Assembly (NCBI GenBank): GCA_027310235.1
Contig: DAIDBF010000049.1
Span: forward strand, 1-32,960
Origin: a bacterium
GTDB lineage: Bacteria; Patescibacteriota; Minisyncoccia; UBA6257; GWB1-50-10
Direction of reading: 5' to 3'
Length of the DNA: 32,960 nucleotides
The notes beneath the pieces are model-generated. The model did no database searches. It was not told where the DNA came from and worked only from the letters and a program-made list of their open reading frames with translations. The position numbers and the translations under genes were made by a program. Shown piece by piece: positions 14,701-32,960 of the stretch (positions are counted from its first letter, which is position 1; each line of letters begins with the position of its first letter).

Positions 14701-14752
14701 GAGGTTATCCCGGAGTGTACTAAATACGGGTCTCCCCGGAGGGGTTGACCCC

Positions 14753-14868
14753 GTAGTGAAAACTCGATAATCATTTACTCAATAAGAACACTTTATAAGA
14801 CACTGCCCCTGAGGGAGTTGTAAGCGAAACCAAAACCAAAAGGTCGCATAAAATCGAGTTTCTACTAC
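14753..14868 (+). repeat. Inverted-repeat element copy 1 (conserved 16-nt termini, unique interior)
   Basis: gtagtgaaaactcgat (14753-14768) ... atcgagtttctactac (14853-14868) form 14 Watson-Crick pairs, one G-U and one mismatch. The element is flanked by an identical 12-mer ggggttgacccc at 14741-14752 and 14869-14880. Confidence 0.6.
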
Positions 14869-14891
14869 GGGGTTGACCCCATTTCCGAATT

Positions 14892-15935
14892 ATGCTAAAA
14901 TCTTTTTCAGATATGAAAGAGATAACAATACATGAATTTATAGACAACCTTCTGTCGGATTTTTCCCCGAAGCAGCGGCGGGTAGTCGTCGGGCGTTTTG
15001 GGCTGAAAAATGGCGAGGTGATGACGCTCCAAGCGATCGGTGATGAACTCAAGATCACGAGGGAACGGGTCCGCCAGATCGAGGAACAGGCGATAAAGAA
15101 GCTTCGCGATAAGATAAAAGTTTCCGCTGCGCATATCCTCGAAGTTGCGGAGAAGCACCTGAAGTTGGTCGGAGACGTTCGTCGCGATGATTTGTTTATC
15201 CAGGATCTCATCTTTGCGCTCGGCATCGATTCTTCCGTGAAATATCCGGGGGAAAAGCTGCGGTTCATCCTTTCCGTCGCCGGCGTCCCTTCATTCGCGA
15301 AGGAAGATGAAAAATATAATGCGTACTGGTACTCCGATGAAAAGGCGAAAACAAAATTCCTGGAATTTGTGAAAGAAGTGACGAACTTTTTGAAAACGGG
15401 GAAAAAGCAGGAAATGATCGACAAAAAATTATATCTCATGCACTGCAAAGATTTAATTTCCTGCCACTTGCTTTCAATACCCAAGCATTTCGGAGTGAAC
15501 GTATTCGGCGACTTCGGACTTGCGGTGTGGCCCGAGATTGCACCGAAGACCATTCGCGACAAAGTGTACCTCGTCTTGAAAAAGCACGAGAAACCCCTTC
15601 ACTTTGAAGATATCGCGAAGTACATCAACCGCTACGGCCTCGACAAAAAATCGGCGCACATACAGACGGTTCATAATGAACTTATCAAAGATAAGCGGTT
15701 CGTACTGGTGGGGCGCGGCGTGTATGCGCTCCGCGAGAACGGATTCGAGGCGGGCACGGTACGGGAAGTGATTGCGCGGCTTCTTTCGACGCATGGGCCT
15801 CTTCACTCGACCGAGGTAGTAAACCTGGTAAATCAACAGCGCTTTTTGAAGGAAAATACCATTCTCCTGAATCTCCAGAATCGGCGTCATTTTAAACGGC
15901 TTGACGACGGCCGTTACAAGATACGAGAAGCATAA
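14892..15935 (+). CDS. Sigma-70 region-4-like HTH protein with two C-terminal HARE-HTH/winged-helix-like domains
   Basis: The N-terminus RRVVVGRFGLKNGEVMTLQAIGDELKITRERVRQIEEQAIKKLR is a region 4.2 HTH. The C-terminal PLHFEDIAKYI...FVLVGRGVYALRE and GPLHSTEVVNLV...FKRLDDGRYKI resemble HARE-HTH. The start may instead be ATG 14913, because TTGACC-17-TAAAAT (14874-14901) overlaps the first ATG. Confidence 0.75.
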   Translation: MLKSFSDMKEITIHEFIDNLLSDFSPKQRRVVVGRFGLKNGEVMTLQAIGDELKITRERVRQIEEQAIKKLRDKIKVSAAHILEVAEKHLKLVGDVRRDDLFIQDLIFALGIDSSVKYPGEKLRFILSVAGVPSFAKEDEKYNAYWYSDEKAKTKFLEFVKEVTNFLKTGKKQEMIDKKLYLMHCKDLISCHLLSIPKHFGVNVFGDFGLAVWPEIAPKTIRDKVYLVLKKHEKPLHFEDIAKYINRYGLDKKSAHIQTVHNELIKDKRFVLVGRGVYALRENGFEAGTVREVIARLLSTHGPLHSTEVVNLVNQQRFLKENTILLNLQNRRHFKRLDDGRYKIREA

Positions 15936-15966
15936 CAAAAACCGCGGGACTGTCCCGCGGTTTTCC
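15936..15966 (+). terminator. Intrinsic (bidirectional-type) terminator
   Basis: aaaaaccgcggga-ctg-tcccgcggtttt is a perfect 9-bp GC-rich stem with a 3-nt loop, an A-tract upstream and a T-tract downstream. It begins directly after the TAA stop at 15933-15935. Confidence 0.8.
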
Positions 15967-15999: not shown

Positions 16000-17406
16000 A
16001 TGCTTGATCATTTGCTTCGGGAAATAGGCACTTTTCTTGAAGAACTCTTCAGAAAAGAAGAGGTATGGGTCATTCTCTTTTTTATGGCGATAGGAGGATT
16101 CTTCCTTGTGCCGCGTTTCGGAATAGGGGATGTGATTCTTTACTTTCTGGAAAGTACCTGGTGGTTGTGGGCGTTTCTTATCATCGCTCCGATTGCGAAC
16201 GGCACATGGCTCCACTGGCGGCAGGAGGTATTTATGCATGATATCAAGTGGGTAATTTTCGAGCTTCGCATGCCGCGGCACGTCGAGAAAAGTCCGCAGG
16301 CTATGGAACAGGTATTCGCCGCAATCCATACGCTTAGGAACACCGCGAACGACTTGGAGGAAAAATACAAGGACGGCGAGGTGACGCGGTGGTTCGCATT
16401 CGAGATGGTATCCTTCGAAGGCGAAACCCATTTTTATGTGCGGACGTACGCACGCCTTAAGGGCCTCGTCGAAGCGGCGTTCTTCTCGTACTATCCCGAT
16501 CTTGATATCGTGGAAGTCCCCGACTACATGGAAAAAATTCCCGAGAGTGTCCGTGACGTGTATGAACAAGGATTGGACATGTGGGGAAGCGAGATGCTGC
16601 TCACCAAGGAAGAATATTATCCGATAAAGACCTACGTTGATTTCGAAAGCGAGGCCGATGAGAAAAAATTCGATCCCATCTCGACCTTCCTCGAGGTGTT
16701 TGCGAAACTTGCGAAAGGGGAGGTAGTGGGAGTCCAGATACTTGTCGCACCCGCGGGGGCGGAAGAATGGGTTGATAAATGGGAAGAAGGCGTGAAGAAG
16801 ATGAGGGAGCCGGAGACGAAGAAGAAAAAATTCATGACGCCGCAGGGTCAAGAGCAGGAGTTCGAGTCGTTTATCATGCGTTCGCCGGGACAGACGGACG
16901 TGTTGAAGGCGATCGAGAAAAATCTTTCGAAACCCGCATTCGATACCATCATCCGCTTTGTCTATCTTTCGCCCAAATCGACGTTCTACGACAGCTTCGC
17001 GCGAAGAGGTATCGTGGGGTCGTTCAACCAGTATGGAGCGCTTGATCTGAACTCGTTCATTCAAAACTATGCCTTGAGTACCCGCACGAGAATCTGGAAT
17101 AAGCCCTACGTGTTTCCGAGGACGCGCGGCGAATACCGCAAGGCGCGGCTTCTTCATATGTATCGTGAGCGTACCATTCCTCCGGAAACGGTCATGGGCC
17201 GTATCTTGACCTCGTACTTCTTCAATTGGAATAAGCCATCCCGCTTTGTAAAGATGAATACCGAGTGCCTTGCCTCGCTCTTCCACGTGCCCACGATCAA
17301 TGTGCTGACCGAGCCGCACCTTCGCCATTTGGAGAGTAAGAAAACGGGACCTCCGGCGGGTCTTGCGATTTTCGGCGGAGAGGAAGAGGTAGAACGGTTC
17401 AAATAA
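16000..17406 (+). CDS. Hypothetical membrane protein (two N-terminal TM helices plus a large soluble domain)
   Basis: ATG 16000 follows the terminator, a TACAAT hexamer and AGGGAG. The TM segments are VWVILFFMAIGGFFLV and WWLWAFLIIAPIA. The rest has normal coding composition but no motif I can name. The track start at 15901 would read through the terminator. Confidence 0.75.
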   Translation: MLDHLLREIGTFLEELFRKEEVWVILFFMAIGGFFLVPRFGIGDVILYFLESTWWLWAFLIIAPIANGTWLHWRQEVFMHDIKWVIFELRMPRHVEKSPQAMEQVFAAIHTLRNTANDLEEKYKDGEVTRWFAFEMVSFEGETHFYVRTYARLKGLVEAAFFSYYPDLDIVEVPDYMEKIPESVRDVYEQGLDMWGSEMLLTKEEYYPIKTYVDFESEADEKKFDPISTFLEVFAKLAKGEVVGVQILVAPAGAEEWVDKWEEGVKKMREPETKKKKFMTPQGQEQEFESFIMRSPGQTDVLKAIEKNLSKPAFDTIIRFVYLSPKSTFYDSFARRGIVGSFNQYGALDLNSFIQNYALSTRTRIWNKPYVFPRTRGEYRKARLLHMYRERTIPPETVMGRILTSYFFNWNKPSRFVKMNTECLASLFHVPTINVLTEPHLRHLESKKTGPPAGLAIFGGEEEVERFK

Positions 17407-17412
17407 TCAGCT

Positions 17413-17955
17413 ATGGGTTCATTTTTTTCAGGCATCGGTAATTTTTTCACCAGTTTCCCATGGGAGGGACTTTTCTCGGTTGCGCGAGTGGTGTTTATTG
17501 TCCTTGATATACTCCTCCTTGTCGCATTTTGTTTTGCGGCGTGGAAGGCATGGAAATTTCGCCCCGATCTCGAGATGAACTTCAGGGGCGGGATAAAAGA
17601 AAAGAAGGAAAAGAAAGCGCTTCCCGTCGATCGTGCGCGTGTAAAAAATCATTGGGAGAAAATCAAAAAGGATGCGGTAAGCGCGCCGCCGCACTCCATG
17701 AAACTCGGAGTGATCGCCGCAGATAATCTCACGGATTCGGTGTTACAGACCATAGGGCTTCCCGGTGAACACATGGCGGATCGTCTTCAAGAACTCGATC
17801 TTGAAGAGCTCGAAACGATCGAGGATCTTTGGAGGGCGCATAAGATACGAAATCAGCTTGTGCATACGCCCGGGTTCGAAATCTCAAAAAAGGAAGGAGA
17901 AGAAATGCTCGACGCGTATGAGGCGTTTTTAAAAGAATTGGGAGCGCTTCAATAA
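17413..17955 (+). CDS. Small membrane-anchored protein with a HEPN-like (DUF4145-like) C-terminal domain
   Basis: An N-terminal TM segment (VARVVFIVLDILLLVAFCFAAW) is followed by a basic linker. The C-terminus ...ADRLQELDLEELETIEDLWRAHKIRNQLVHTPG contains an R-x4-H motif (17848-17865) in a helical context like HEPN/DUF4145. The assignment is tentative. Confidence 0.6.
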   Translation: MGSFFSGIGNFFTSFPWEGLFSVARVVFIVLDILLLVAFCFAAWKAWKFRPDLEMNFRGGIKEKKEKKALPVDRARVKNHWEKIKKDAVSAPPHSMKLGVIAADNLTDSVLQTIGLPGEHMADRLQELDLEELETIEDLWRAHKIRNQLVHTPGFEISKKEGEEMLDAYEAFLKELGALQ

Positions 17956-18080
17956 TTTTTTAATTTACAATTTGAAATTTTTATTCAATTTTAAATGATT
18001 TAAGTTTAAATTTTTAAAACATTATAACATTAGGATTTGATTAAAAATTAAAAATTTTGAATTAAAAATTATCGTCTATT
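17956..18080. promoter_or_regulatory. Extreme AT-rich spacer (about 125 nt) with repeated ttga(a)ttaaaaatta units
   Basis: Only a handful of G/C occur in 125 nt, against a background that looks close to balanced in GC by eye. A near-direct repeat occurs at 18036-18050 and 18056-18071. The spacer lies immediately upstream of the ATPase gene. Confidence 0.5.
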
Positions 18081-19526
18081 ATGCCTCGCGAATCAAAACT
18101 GCAAATTATCAAATATGCTCCTCCGCCGCCGGAGCTGCCGATCTACGGGCAAGTTGACCCGAAGGACGTGTCGTTTATAGGGAGAACCAATTACGTCGCC
18201 GCGCTTGAGCGGAAGAATTTCATCTTTGGCATCAAACGCGTCGACAGAAGAAGGCACGCGTACATCATCGGGAAAAGCGGCGTCGGAAAATCGAAGCTCT
18301 TGGAACTTTTTACGCGCCAGGATATCGCCTATGGCCACGGACTTTGCCTTATCGATCCGCACGGCGAAACGATCGACGACATCCTTCCGTTTATCCCAAA
18401 GGAACGCATTGATGATGTGTGCATCATCGATCCTTCCGACATTAATTACCCCGTATCCTTCAACCCGCTTGCAAACATCGATCCCTCTTTCAAACATCAG
18501 CTTACCCAAGGTCTTATTGAAGTCATGGAAAAGCAGTTCGGTGCGAACTGGACGCCGCGGCTCGAGCACGTATTCCGCTTTACCTGTCTCGCGCTTCTCG
18601 ATTATCCGCATGCCACCATGCGCGGCATGATCTCGATGTTGACCGATAGAAACTACCGCCAAAAAGTAGTGGAATATATCGAGGACGACATGGTAAAACG
18701 CTTCTGGGCGATCGAGTTTGCCGACTGGTCGGAAAAGTTCGACACGGAGGCCATCATCCCGCTTGTAAACAAGCTCGGACAGTTCCTTTCGGATCCGATG
18801 CTTCGGAACATCTTCGGGCAGAAAGAAAACAAGGTAAAACTCGAAGAGTTGATGCAGGAGAAGAAGATCATTCTCATCAATCTTTCGAAGGGGAAGATCG
18901 GAGAAGAAAATTCAAGTTTCTTCGGTTCGATGTTCATCACGAAAATTAAGCAAGCCGGCATGGCGCGCGCCGCGCTTCCAACCTCCGAACGGCACGACTA
19001 CTACGTGTATGTGGACGAGTTCCAGAATCTCGTAACCGATACGTTTGAAAACCTTTTGTCCGAGGCGCGCAAGTACGGATTGTGTCTTACAGTCGCGCAT
19101 CAGTATGTGGGGCAACTCTTGCCGAAGGTAGAAGCCGCCGTTCTGGGAAATACCGGAACGATTATCATTTTCCGCGTAGGCGGCGAAGATGCCGTGAAAC
19201 TGAAACCGGAGATGGCGCCCATCTTCGATATTAAGGATATGATCAACCTCGGTATGGGTCAGATTTATATCAAGATGACGATTGATGGCGAGACGTACGA
19301 TCCATTTTCCGCAGAGACGCTGAAAGTGCTCCCGCCGACGCATCCCTCATATAAGGAAGAAATCGTCGCGCGATCGCGCGAGAAGTATTCAATCTCCGCG
19401 GATGCGGCAAAGCGGCTCATCGCGGAAGAGGAAGAAGGAATTTTCCGAAGTGCCCAGGAAAAGGCGGCGATCACTGGCAAACCGCAGGCGGCGGCCGGAA
19501 ACGATACTCCAGAACCACTCATATAG
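18081..19526 (+). CDS. Soluble VirD4/TraD/TraG (type IV coupling protein)-like P-loop ATPase, paralogue 1
   Basis: It has Walker A IIGKSGVGKS, Walker B YYVYVDEFQN, then LLSEARKYGLCLTVAHQYVGQL, matching the T4CP-type pattern DE..L....L.E.RK.G....HQ...QL. There is no N-terminal TM segment. Confidence 0.8.
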   Translation: MPRESKLQIIKYAPPPPELPIYGQVDPKDVSFIGRTNYVAALERKNFIFGIKRVDRRRHAYIIGKSGVGKSKLLELFTRQDIAYGHGLCLIDPHGETIDDILPFIPKERIDDVCIIDPSDINYPVSFNPLANIDPSFKHQLTQGLIEVMEKQFGANWTPRLEHVFRFTCLALLDYPHATMRGMISMLTDRNYRQKVVEYIEDDMVKRFWAIEFADWSEKFDTEAIIPLVNKLGQFLSDPMLRNIFGQKENKVKLEELMQEKKIILINLSKGKIGEENSSFFGSMFITKIKQAGMARAALPTSERHDYYVYVDEFQNLVTDTFENLLSEARKYGLCLTVAHQYVGQLLPKVEAAVLGNTGTIIIFRVGGEDAVKLKPEMAPIFDIKDMINLGMGQIYIKMTIDGETYDPFSAETLKVLPPTHPSYKEEIVARSREKYSISADAAKRLIAEEEEGIFRSAQEKAAITGKPQAAAGNDTPEPLI

Positions 19527-19542
19527 ATTTCTCCTAAACCCA

Positions 19543-19662
19543 GTAGTGAAAACTCGATTGTGTATTGCCCCTCTTTTCCTCGATTTATTTCATATCTCCA
19601 CAAAGGCGTAAAATAATTAAGAAGATTCAAGCATCAAAAACAAATTATCGAGTTTCTACTAC
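19543..19662 (+). repeat. Inverted-repeat element copy 2
   Basis: The 16-nt termini are identical to copy 1 (19543-19558 and 19647-19662). The stem is extended by ccca/tggg. The 88-nt interior is unrelated to that of copy 1. Confidence 0.6.
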
Positions 19663-19694
19663 TGGGAAAGGTCGCTAGTTTAAAAGTAAATTAT

Positions 19695-31162: not shown

Positions 31163-32960
31163 ATGCCAAACGAGGAAGCGGATAAGGACGTCGTCTATTT
31201 TGCGAAGACGAATTTTCGGAACTCGAACCGACTTTTCGGTATCAGGCGGAAAGATCGTCGTCAACACACGTATATCATCGGAAAGACCGGTACCGGTAAG
31301 TCCGCGCTTTTGAACAACTTAATTGTGCAGGATATCGCAAACGGCGAAGGACTTTGCGTTGTGGATCCGCATGGAGAACTTATCGAGGACATCCTTCACA
31401 AGATTCCGGAGGAGCGGATGAAGGACGTCGTGTACTTCAATCCTGCGGACACCGATTTTCATCTCGGATTCAATGTCTTGGAGCTCCCCGATCCGAAGTA
31501 TAAACACCTTGTTGCGTCGGGTCTCATGGGTATTTTCACGAAGATCTGGTCGAACGTATGGTCGGCGAGAATGGAATATATTTTGAATAACGCGATTCTC
31601 GCCCTTCTCGATACTCCGGGAAGTACACTTCTCGGCATCACGCGGCTTCTCGTTGACAAAGAGTATCGCGGAAAGATCGTTTCGAACCTCAAAGACCCCG
31701 TCGTCAAAGCGTTCTGGGTGAACGAGTACGAGGAGTGGCGGGATCAGTTCAGAAACGAGGCAATCGCTCCTATTCAAAACAAGGTAGGCCAGTTCCTTTC
31801 GACTTCGGTGGTTCGAAACATTGTGGGACAAGCGAAAAGCACCTTCGATATTTTCGAAATCATGAATTCGGGAAAAATCTTTCTCGTGAACGTGTCAAAA
31901 GGAAGGATCGGTGAAGATAACTCGGCGCTTTTGGGCGCGATGCTTATCACGAAGATTCAACTCTCCGCGATGGAACGCGTGCGCGTCCCGGAAGAAGAGC
32001 GTGTCGATTTTTTCCTCTATGTCGACGAGTTTCAGAACTTCGCGACCGATTCGTTCGCGAGCATTCTCTCCGAAGCGAGAAAGTACCGACTTGATCTCGT
32101 ACTTGCGCACCAGTACGTGGGACAACTCGTGACGGACGTCTCGACCAAGGTGCGCGACGCGGTATTTGGGAACGTCGGAACGATGATTGTGTTCAGGGTG
32201 GGCGCGGCTGACGCGGAGTTTTTGGAGAAAGAGTTCGAACCGGAGTTCCTTCCGGAAGATTTCGTGAATCTTCCGAACTACAACATTTATTTGAAACTGA
32301 TGGTAAACGGCGTCACGAGTCGTCCTTTTTCCGCCGCCACGCTTCCGCCTTTTAAGTTGAGCACCTCCGAGGATATAGAACAAAAAATCATCGAATATTC
32401 GAGAAAGCACTACGCGCGCCCGCGATGGGTGGTCGAGGAAGAAATCAACAAATGGACCGGCGTCATGGGGCCGAGTGAAGGACAGTTCGAGGTGACGTGT
32501 TCGTCGTGCGGCAAGCAGACGACCGTGCCATTCGAACCAGAGGAAGGTCGTCCGGTGTACTGTAAGGACTGCCTTGCAAAGATAAAGTCGGGCGAGATGA
32601 AGCCGGTACGAATGGCGCCGCGGGAATCGAAGGATGGCGGCCGGCCGCGGGAACAGCAATATGCCGCGCTTGCGGGCCTCGGTATCGAGTTTGAGGAACA
32701 TCCGGAACGATCGGCGGAACGAAAACAAGAAAGAAACGGCGAGGCGCAAGAAAAACCCCACCGCCCCTCGAATCATTTCCAGGAAAGAAAAGAGCAGAAG
32801 GTTGAAGAACGACCGAAGACGACGTTCGAGGAGGAGTCTGTGGTTGCTCCGCAGCCCGAAACGCCGGCGCTTTCGCTCCACGCGCTTGAGACGGGTTCCG
32901 GTGCCGAAGCAAAGAAGAAAGAAGAATCGGAAGAAGTATTGGATGTGGAAGAGCTCCGAA
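31163..32960 (+). CDS. VirD4/TraD/TraG-like P-loop ATPase, paralogue 2, with C-terminal zinc ribbon and charged tail (3' end outside window)
   Basis: This ORF is absent from the ORF track because no stop falls in the window; my manual translation is open from ATG 31163 to the window end. It has IIGKTGTGKS, FFLYVDEFQN and ILSEARKYRLDLVLAHQYVGQL, and is clearly paralogous to 18081-19526. It adds VTCSSCGKQTTVPFEPEEGRPVYCKDCL (32498-32572) and an E/K/R-rich tail. Confidence 0.85.
   Translation, partial: MPNEEADKDVVYFAKTNFRNSNRLFGIRRKDRRQHTYIIGKTGTGKSALLNNLIVQDIANGEGLCVVDPHGELIEDILHKIPEERMKDVVYFNPADTDFHLGFNVLELPDPKYKHLVASGLMGIFTKIWSNVWSARMEYILNNAILALLDTPGSTLLGITRLLVDKEYRGKIVSNLKDPVVKAFWVNEYEEWRDQFRNEAIAPIQNKVGQFLSTSVVRNIVGQAKSTFDIFEIMNSGKIFLVNVSKGRIGEDNSALLGAMLITKIQLSAMERVRVPEEERVDFFLYVDEFQNFATDSFASILSEARKYRLDLVLAHQYVGQLVTDVSTKVRDAVFGNVGTMIVFRVGAADAEFLEKEFEPEFLPEDFVNLPNYNIYLKLMVNGVTSRPFSAATLPPFKLSTSEDIEQKIIEYSRKHYARPRWVVEEEINKWTGVMGPSEGQFEVTCSSCGKQTTVPFEPEEGRPVYCKDCLAKIKSGEMKPVRMAPRESKDGGRPREQQYAALAGLGIEFEEHPERSAERKQERNGEAQEKPHRPSNHFQERKEQKVEERPKTTFEEESVVAPQPETPALSLHALETGSGAEAKKKEESEEVLDVEELR

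Follow-up and report, generated by a model that had tools for sequence, protein, structure and literature searches.

What is a small, membrane-anchored protein of apparent HEPN type doing between the gene for a two-helix membrane protein and the gene for a translocase-like ATPase? The question is raised by three consecutive forward-strand genes on contig DAIDBF010000049.1 (our contig C20), part of a 743-kb, 95.6%-complete metagenome-assembled genome of the Patescibacteria whose named relatives are the Jorgensen-, Brenner-, Lipton-, and Wolfebacteria, also labeled Paceibacterota. The window, meaning the whole 32,960-nt stretch that was analyzed, carries open reading frame (ORF) 1 at 16000..17406 (468 aa; stop codon at 17404-17406), ORF2 at 17413..17955 (180 aa), and ORF3 at 18081..19526 (481 aa). 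The ATG of ORF2 lies 6 nt past the stop of ORF1, and a 125-nt AT-rich spacer (17956..18080; 11.2% G+C) precedes ORF3. An earlier interpretation made from the letters alone (the sequence-only reading) had proposed a three-gene module with a defense or toxin flavor. Its description of the three genes, their transmembrane (TM) segments, the AT-rich spacer, and the position of an R-x4-H motif in ORF2 proved accurate in every case, and its interpretation was borne out in part. We consider it probable that the locus encodes a split motor, formed by ORF1 and ORF3, together with a relocated housekeeping HEPN protein, ORF2, and that it is not a defense module.

The connection between ORF1 and ORF3 was read from twelve loci with ORF1 matches (L006 to L017) that were fetched for gene order. 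Four of these (L006 to L009), from other classes of Patescibacteria, carry one ORF (943, 1191, 777, and 879 aa) in which an ORF1-like part (approximately residues 7 to 410) precedes an ORF3-like part, with one N-terminal TM segment and a Walker A motif near residue 415. ORF3 directly follows ORF1, with nothing between, in L011 and in L013 to L016, and the three-gene form is found in L010, which belongs to the host's taxonomic order. Open frames of 776 to 1191 aa hold about 50 of the best 150 ORF1 matches, and ORF1 (positions 74 to 213; E, 8e-8) and ORF3 (positions 389 to 809; E, 8.2e-55) both match phrog_5156, one phage-protein profile 824 positions long. The fused homologs and this profile lend good support to the suggestion, made in the sequence-only reading, that the membrane anchor of the ATPase is supplied in trans. 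From these sequence comparisons, we interpret ORF1 and ORF3 as the two separately encoded parts of a single motor anchored in the membrane.

Two of the fetched loci depart from these forms: their ORF1-like genes (L012:5134-6543, 469 aa, and L017:5308-6705, 465 aa) are not accompanied by an ATPase gene in the 12 kb retrieved. A tandem arrangement occupies L014:5501-10589, where ORF1 (403 aa) and an ATPase (555 aa) are followed by a 727-aa protein consisting of a truncated ORF1-like N-terminal part fused to a second ATPase with 53% identity to ORF3.

The distribution of these genes was assessed in a sample of 301 genomes spread evenly over the phylum, 254 of them of high quality. ORF1 was detected in 291 of the 301 genomes and in 252 of the 254 high-quality ones, and there are two to four paralogs per genome. 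The motor pair belongs to the chromosomal core of nearly all Patescibacteria.

ORF1 forms the putative membrane half of the motor. Its start was placed at the ATG at position 16000, behind AAGGGAGAAA, in preference to a TTG at 15901, because relatives align from residue 1 of the shorter form. Hydrophobic segments span residues 19 to 43 and 45 to 63, and an AlphaFold2 (AF2) model built with 66 homologs has helices at residues 20 to 36 and 54 to 81 (mean predicted local distance difference test [pLDDT] score, 83.6; predicted TM-score [pTM], 0.79). When this model was compared with the PDB by Foldseek, the top 14 matches were all TrwK/VirB4 of R388 (E, 1.7e-5 to 4e-3; probability, 0.92 to 1.00), at TM-scores of 0.30 to 0.33 and with the aligned TrwK range not shown; FAD-oxidase, Cas6, and ferredoxin-like folds came after them at E values above 0.01. 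In the model, ORF1 has a two-TM hairpin at its N terminus and then an alpha/beta domain, placed in the cytoplasm, with a predicted fold similar to that of the VirB4 N-terminal domain. Homologs of ORF1 bear a precomputed Pfam label, PF26449.

ORF3, the putative motor half, is a soluble P-loop ATPase. Walker A (GKSGVGKS) is found at residue 64 and Walker B (YVYVDE) at residue 308, and no hydrophobic or TM segment was found over its 481 aa. It exceeds the Pfam cut-offs for TrwB_AAD_bind (29.5 bits against 20.5), TraG-D_C (25.3 against 22), and DUF87 (26.2 against 23.2), and passes marginally for T4SS-DNA_transf (20.3 against 20.1). The best NCBIfam profiles were SXT_TraD (44 bits; cut-off, 366) and CD1115 VirD4-like (43.6 bits; cut-off, 250), neither of which reached its cut-off, while the VirB4, HerA, and Ced profiles scored below TraD and VirD4, VirB4 at an E value of 2.9e-5 and weaker. 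By sequence, ORF3 is closest to the type IV coupling proteins (T4CPs) TrwB, VirD4, and TraD. Since the Pfam cut-offs are passed but the NCBIfam cut-offs are missed, we describe it as a T4CP-like member of the FtsK/HerA superfamily and not as a certified TraD or VirD4.

What kind of motor might this be? With the T4CPs (TrwB of R388, VirD4, and TraD; PF10412, PF02534, and PF12696), ORF3 has in common the nucleotide-binding domain (NBD) family and the Walker A and B motifs. Canonical T4CPs, however, carry an N-terminal TM domain in the same polypeptide, whereas ORF3 has none and its proposed anchor is in ORF1; ORF3 also has as its partner, separate or fused, an N-terminal domain of about 390 aa with no equivalent in canonical T4CPs. 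Their genes belong to mobile elements, whereas ORF3 is a chromosomal core gene of the phylum and does not lie beside a type IV secretion system (T4SS). The layout of ORF1 plus ORF3, in which a two-TM hairpin leads into a domain of some 390 aa and then a P-loop domain, is also that of VirB3-VirB4 (TrwM-TrwK of R388; PDB 7o42, 7o43, and 8rtd). The fused homologs resemble this pair further in the length of the N-terminal domain (about 350 to 400 aa) and in the place of Walker A, which occupies a comparable position in VirB4. The differences from VirB4 are that ORF1 shows no likeness to its sequence profiles (PF03135, TIGR00929, and NF045971), that ORF3 is nearer to the T4CP profiles, that no other T4SS genes are found near ORF1 and ORF3, and that the host keeps a separate, bona fide VirB4. 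A further parallel is provided by TraJ and TraI of pIP501, in which a TM-less coupling ATPase is recruited by a separately encoded membrane protein, as we suggest for ORF3 and ORF1. Those are conjugation genes in a plasmid T4SS operon, whereas the partner here has a VirB4-like N-terminal domain in its model, sister lineages encode a fused form, and the genes are chromosomal and phylum-wide. We describe the motor as a VirB4-like architecture with a T4CP-like NBD and place it in neither family.

The bona fide VirB4 of the host, of MPF-FATA type, is encoded on contig C27 and scores 377 bits against a cut-off of 325. One possible reading is that ORF3, anchored by ORF1, merely serves the host's own T4SS as its coupling protein and is encoded at a distance from the VirB4 cluster. 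The Pfam T4CP cut-offs passed by ORF3 and the presence of that VirB4 fit such a role, as does the frequent location of T4CP genes far away from virB4 (PMC12102498). A survey of the phylum counted 5,713 VirD4-type homologs in 2,918 Patescibacteria genomes and found only 148 of them near virB4 (Quinonero-Coronel et al. 2025, PMC12102498). The authors of that survey suggested that the VirD4-type genes of Patescibacteria may be exapted to other functions, and they found relaxases to be scarce (109 in 103 genomes), which speaks against the coupling role. VirB4 was detected in 115 of 121 sampled genomes, and all six genomes without a VirB4 match nevertheless carry ORF1. The presence of several paralogs per genome, the VirB4-like N-terminal domain that ORF1 is predicted to add and that canonical T4CPs lack, and the finding that the T4SS genes of Southlakia epibionticum are essential whereas the syntenic T4CP-like gene SEML1_0293 is not also speak against a coupling role, which we regard as quite improbable. 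No T4SS genes were found in the window, relaxases not having been searched for; the neighbors of the three genes are secD, secF, a gene for a sigma-like protein, cutA, and zinc-ribbon genes.

The motor is separate from the VirB4 T4SS of the host and from FtsK. A role as a replacement for FtsK was ruled out by the canonical FtsK encoded on contig C83. An origin from a mobile element was likewise rejected: ORF1 gave no tblastn match in phage or plasmid collections, though phrog_5156 covers both halves. The VirB4 of the host was itself found in two pieces at C27:16434-18709, where a 589-aa frame corresponds to profile positions 187 to 734 and a separate upstream frame of 223 aa to positions 2 to 102. 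This canonical VirB4 looks split at its N terminus and is probably the TrsD-like protein of PMC12102498.

The gene between the two motor halves encodes a small N-terminally anchored protein with a predicted cytoplasmic, HEPN-like four-helix domain. ORF2 has a single TM segment (residues 17 to 47), followed by a linker rich in Lys and Arg (10 such residues within residues 45 to 75), which by the positive-inside rule places the C-terminal domain in the cytoplasm. The AF2 model (mean pLDDT, 89.8) comprises the TM helix, a disordered linker (residues 56 to 65), and a C-terminal helical bundle of about 110 aa. Among 45 homologs, W81, D104, L111, G118, R124, W140, A142, H143, N147, H151, and F172 are invariant, and R146 is conserved in at least 90%; the family consensus reads GEHMADRL ... 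LWRAHRxRNxLVHTPGF. Residues R146-N147-x3-H151, encoded at 17848..17865 on the forward strand and reading RNQLVH, form the R-x4-H motif on which the HEPN prediction had been based.

A Foldseek search with the ORF2 model, a check that the sequence-only reading had proposed, put HEPN structures at the top of the list, with no match at an E value of 0.001 or below. The best match was the HEPN protein 2hsb (E, 0.029; probability, 1.00; TMt, 0.63), and the top of the list (2hsb, 5yep, 7ae6, 7bxo, 9bj7, 4nqf, 1ylm, and 1o3u) consisted throughout of HEPN or HEPN-like structures with weak E values, under names that include HepT/SO_3166, an AMPylated HEPN toxin, AbiV, YutE, TM0613, and the sacsin HEPN domain. 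A Pfam scan of the 45 members returned HEPN_Swt1 most frequently (8 of 45; best E, 0.012, below threshold) and Hypoth_Ymh in 2 of 45, and no member had a significant match to a family of the HEPN clan. The more specific expectation of a likeness to DUF4145 found no direct support, since the local Pfam scan did not list that family for any of the 45 members. An exhaustive profile search with the C-terminal domain collected 3,007 cluster representatives, the best 150 of which were all close ORF2-family members with the same architecture and formed no bridge to named HEPN families. The sole match of the ORF2 profile to PDB sequences, a short alignment with the N terminus of Rpb5 (E, 0.023), was judged spurious. 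The conserved motif, the ranking of fold matches to the predicted structure, and the subthreshold profiles support the designation of ORF2 as HEPN-like, short of proof, and the R-N-x3-H motif suggests that ORF2 may bind or cleave RNA.

Minimal HEPN proteins (AF_0298, 2hsb; HepT/SO_3166, 5yep; AbiV, 9bj7) and the Pfam families HEPN_Swt1 (PF18731) and DUF4145 (PF13643) resemble the modeled ORF2 in combining a helical bundle with this motif. ORF2 differs from them in being anchored in the membrane at its N terminus, in lacking an MNT antitoxin or an abortive-infection (Abi) partner, in scoring below the family thresholds, and in being a core gene that is tied either to gatCAB or to the motor. The idea that ORF2 might be a stand-in membrane RNase was discarded, as the host has RNase Y; RNase E/G was looked for in the host genome and not found.

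The ORF2 family occurs in two genomic contexts. A profile search found the family in 182 of the 301 genomes, mostly far from ORF1, with a single match in the host genome. Outside the host's order, 38 loci from many families were fetched, and in 35 of these the ORF2-family gene stands immediately after gatA; gatB is downstream in 26 and directly adjacent in 22, and the usual gene order is ligA-gatC-gatA-X-gatB, where X is the ORF2-family gene. The orthologs in this context, other classes included, retain the TM helix at the N terminus, and their conserved motif reads W.AHK.RN.L.H. Within the host's order, neither X nor gatB follows ligA-gatC-gatA, and gatB is found kilobases away or on another contig. 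As judged from these gene orders, the position directly after gatA is the ancestral and majority position of the ORF2 gene, and in the host's order the gat operon has been broken up and the gene moved between ORF1 and ORF3. ORF2 is probably a relocated housekeeping factor, related to tRNA or another RNA, at the membrane, and we read it as neither a toxin nor an obligate motor subunit.

A second ORF2-family paralog of about 210 aa was observed after gatB at four loci (L101:9872-10498, L102:11395-12003, L111:5246-5878, and L114:7941-8606). Its TM segment is C-terminal, not N-terminal, and the R-N-x3-H motif has been lost.

Gene order within the host's order is different. A search for the ORF2 motif yielded the loci of 80 species-level relatives, all from that order. 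ORF1 is directly upstream of ORF2 in all 80, and ORF3 is downstream in 77, an arrangement well beyond what chance would give within the clade. The synteny expected by the sequence-only reading thus holds within the order and is not seen outside it, where ORF2 belongs to the gatCAB operon, and the proposal of one conserved three-gene module is not supported. The in-order synteny could nevertheless mean that the motor has gained ORF2 as a true third subunit or as a regulator. In such a complex the TM helix of ORF2 would pack on the hairpin of ORF1, and the HEPN domain would sit at the opening of the ATPase, where it would gate the motor or would sense or cut RNA. This proposal draws on the constancy of the arrangement down to 32% ORF2 identity, on short ORF1-ORF2 spacers (6 nt here) that suggest translational coupling, and on the apparent location of all three proteins at the membrane with their domains on the cytoplasmic side. 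In addition, no more than 7 kb separate the gat-ORF2 block from an ORF1-ORF3 pair in 4 of the 38 outside loci, against a rough chance expectation of about 1, which hints at an old neighborhood from which the present order may derive. However, the whole block from secD and secF through the sigma-like gene, ORF1, ORF2, ORF3, and (in some cases) cutA to the zinc-ribbon genes is collinear throughout the in-order genomes, so that this order is expected without any shared function, and synteny within the order is by itself no proof of a three-gene functional module. Most of the phylum has the motor with no ORF2 nearby, the fused motors have no HEPN domain, gatA is the dominant gene-order partner of ORF2, and the catalytic motif and architecture of ORF2 are the same in both contexts. 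A third subunit therefore seems unlikely to us, and relocation of a housekeeping gene is preferred.

The same distribution bears on the defense or toxin flavor that the sequence-only reading had given to the locus, in which a membrane-tethered HEPN RNase would act as an effector under an ATPase sensor. An R-x4-H HEPN domain is typical of abortive-infection and toxin systems, HepT and AbiV are among the Foldseek matches of ORF2, and PADLOC reported weak matches of ORF3 to mad8 (E, 2e-12) and HerA. The similarity of ORF3 to mad8 and HerA is generic, however, and PADLOC returned no match for ORF1 or ORF2. A near-universal core pair beside secDF is not what such a system would lead one to expect, nor is an ORF2 family with a single match in the host, in a housekeeping neighborhood, and inside gatCAB in most of the phylum. 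Median identities over the order are 79% for ORF3, 51% for ORF1, and 44% for ORF2, and the value for ORF3 is the opposite of what is seen in fast-evolving defense genes. The failure of ORF1 to match the phage and plasmid collections points in the same direction, as does the growth defect or essentiality that follows disruption of the syntenic gene of Southlakia. We consider a defense or toxin function very improbable and retain the interpretation of a split motor with a relocated housekeeping protein.

Putative counterparts of these genes in Southlakia epibionticum ML1 have been included in a transposon sequencing (Tn-seq) study (Wang et al. 2023, PMC10633639). SEML1_0294 ("RpoS," 349 aa) is essential (Table S1) and is followed by SEML1_0293, a fused protein of 921 aa with TrwB_AAD_bind at residues 402 to 719 and a P-loop domain at residues 361 to 795 (Tables S1 and S2), which is nonessential at all three passages; SEML1_0142, a second fused paralog, is essential. 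SEML1_0535, a gene for a protein of 139 aa between gatA and gatB, is annotated as "DUF4145 domain-containing" with the ECOD assignment e1wtyA1 (HEPN type) (Table S2), and its Tn-seq calls were growth defect, growth defect, and essential. Southlakia thus has a fused motor and carries the HEPN gene within the gat operon, whereas here the motor is split and the HEPN gene lies between its halves. The ATPase half was already known as an orphan T4CP homolog (PMC12102498) and the HEPN gene from a supplementary table (PMC10633639), and neither had been studied. New here is the finding that the HEPN protein between the motor halves belongs to the gat-operon protein family and was relocated in one order.

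Several observations weigh against parts of this interpretation. The VirB4 likeness of ORF1 appears in the fold alone: ORF1 had no match in the local NCBIfam library or in the local Pfam copy, which lacks PF26449, its family profile found nothing among all PDB sequences, and hhalign of the family against 31 Patescibacteria VirB4 proteins gave a probability of 0.5%, so that the link to VirB4 stays structural, at TM-scores that are themselves low. The HEPN assignment of ORF2 is drawn from weak scores (Foldseek E values of 0.03 to 2 and subthreshold Pfam matches), and four-helix bundles are common folds. The Southlakia genes were matched by synteny and annotation and not by sequence. The persistence of ORF2 between ORF1 and ORF3 at all 80 species-level loci despite such divergence, taken with the 4 outside loci near the motor, leaves room for a real functional tie between ORF2 and the motor. 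DNA is weakly favored as the cargo, through analogy with T4CPs and FtsK and the presence of a DNA-binding neighbor, and this choice is tentative and open to doubt. A more far-reaching alternative would make the motor a third, unclassified branch of the VirB4/VirD4 radiation, with a VirB4-type N-terminal domain and a coupling-protein-type NBD, working as a T4SS-independent core machine. In the host's order the HEPN protein would then have been recruited as a subunit, and the motor would act on RNA or would link the translocation of nucleic acids with the processing of RNA or tRNA at the membrane. We regard this composite proposal as improbable.

Under the split-motor interpretation, ORF1 would enter the membrane by an N-in two-TM hairpin and expose its alpha/beta domain to the cytoplasm. 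There it would dock ORF3, the catalytic P-loop domain, presumably as a hexamer, and the complex, powered by ATP, would transport a polymer at the membrane or across it. ORF2 would bind or cut RNA near the same membrane.

The sigma-like gene upstream of ORF1 accompanies the motor widely. It occupies 14892..15935 on the forward strand and encodes a 347-aa protein with a sigma-70 region 4 helix-turn-helix (HTH) domain (Pfam Sigma70_r4; E, 7.5e-15) and a HARE-HTH domain (E, 1.7e-10). A gene of this type is directly upstream of ORF1 in all 71 in-order loci with room upstream, and of 12 loci from other families, 10 have it directly ahead of the motor, be it fused or split, and frequently secD-secF still further upstream; the ORF1-like gene of L012 that lacks an ATPase neighbor is still downstream of one. 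Neither this conserved gene nor the VirB4-like fold of ORF1 figured in the sequence-only reading. The terminator reported upstream of the three genes is present on the forward strand between the sigma-like gene and ORF1, as a hairpin at 15938..15964 that has a G+C-rich stem of 12 to 13 bp, of which 7 are G-C pairs, and a T run behind it.

Two copies of a palindromic hairpin element with the same termini flank exactly the block formed by the sigma-like gene, ORF1, ORF2, and ORF3. The first (14741..14880; 28-nt arms with 84 nt between) lies in the gap between secF and the sigma-like gene, and the second (19539..19666; 20-nt arms with 88 nt between) lies just past ORF3. Both probably belong to a palindromic repeat family of the genome. 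The AT-rich spacer contains an imperfect 47-nt inverted repeat (17957-18068; 77% complementary) and corresponds to a spacer of only 10 to 30 nt in many relatives. It is possibly the promoter of ORF3 itself, the promoter-like sites in it being consensus matches only.

A second TM-less ATPase, a paralog with 48% identity to ORF3, begins at 31163 on the forward strand and extends past the end of the window (31163..32959). It sits behind an array of six zinc-ribbon genes, lacks a dedicated ORF1-like gene upstream, and may share ORF1 as an anchor or act as a soluble enzyme. Another partial ORF3 paralog was observed at the start of contig C24.

On present evidence, neither a split motor nor a housekeeping HEPN protein is a new kind of biology. 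The locus shows how an "orphan" VirD4-type gene of this phylum is built, with a membrane half, separate or fused, whose predicted fold is VirB4-like, and with a sigma-like protein and secDF beside it, independently of a T4SS. Knowing this composition makes the function of the orphan genes testable, and in Southlakia one paralog is dispensable and another essential. The locus also ties together two "dark" core genes that recur in the phylum, since the HEPN-fold protein of the gatCAB operon belongs to the family of the gene that is wedged in the split motor. In these minimal cells, a domain known chiefly from toxins and defense thus appears to have a housekeeping role.

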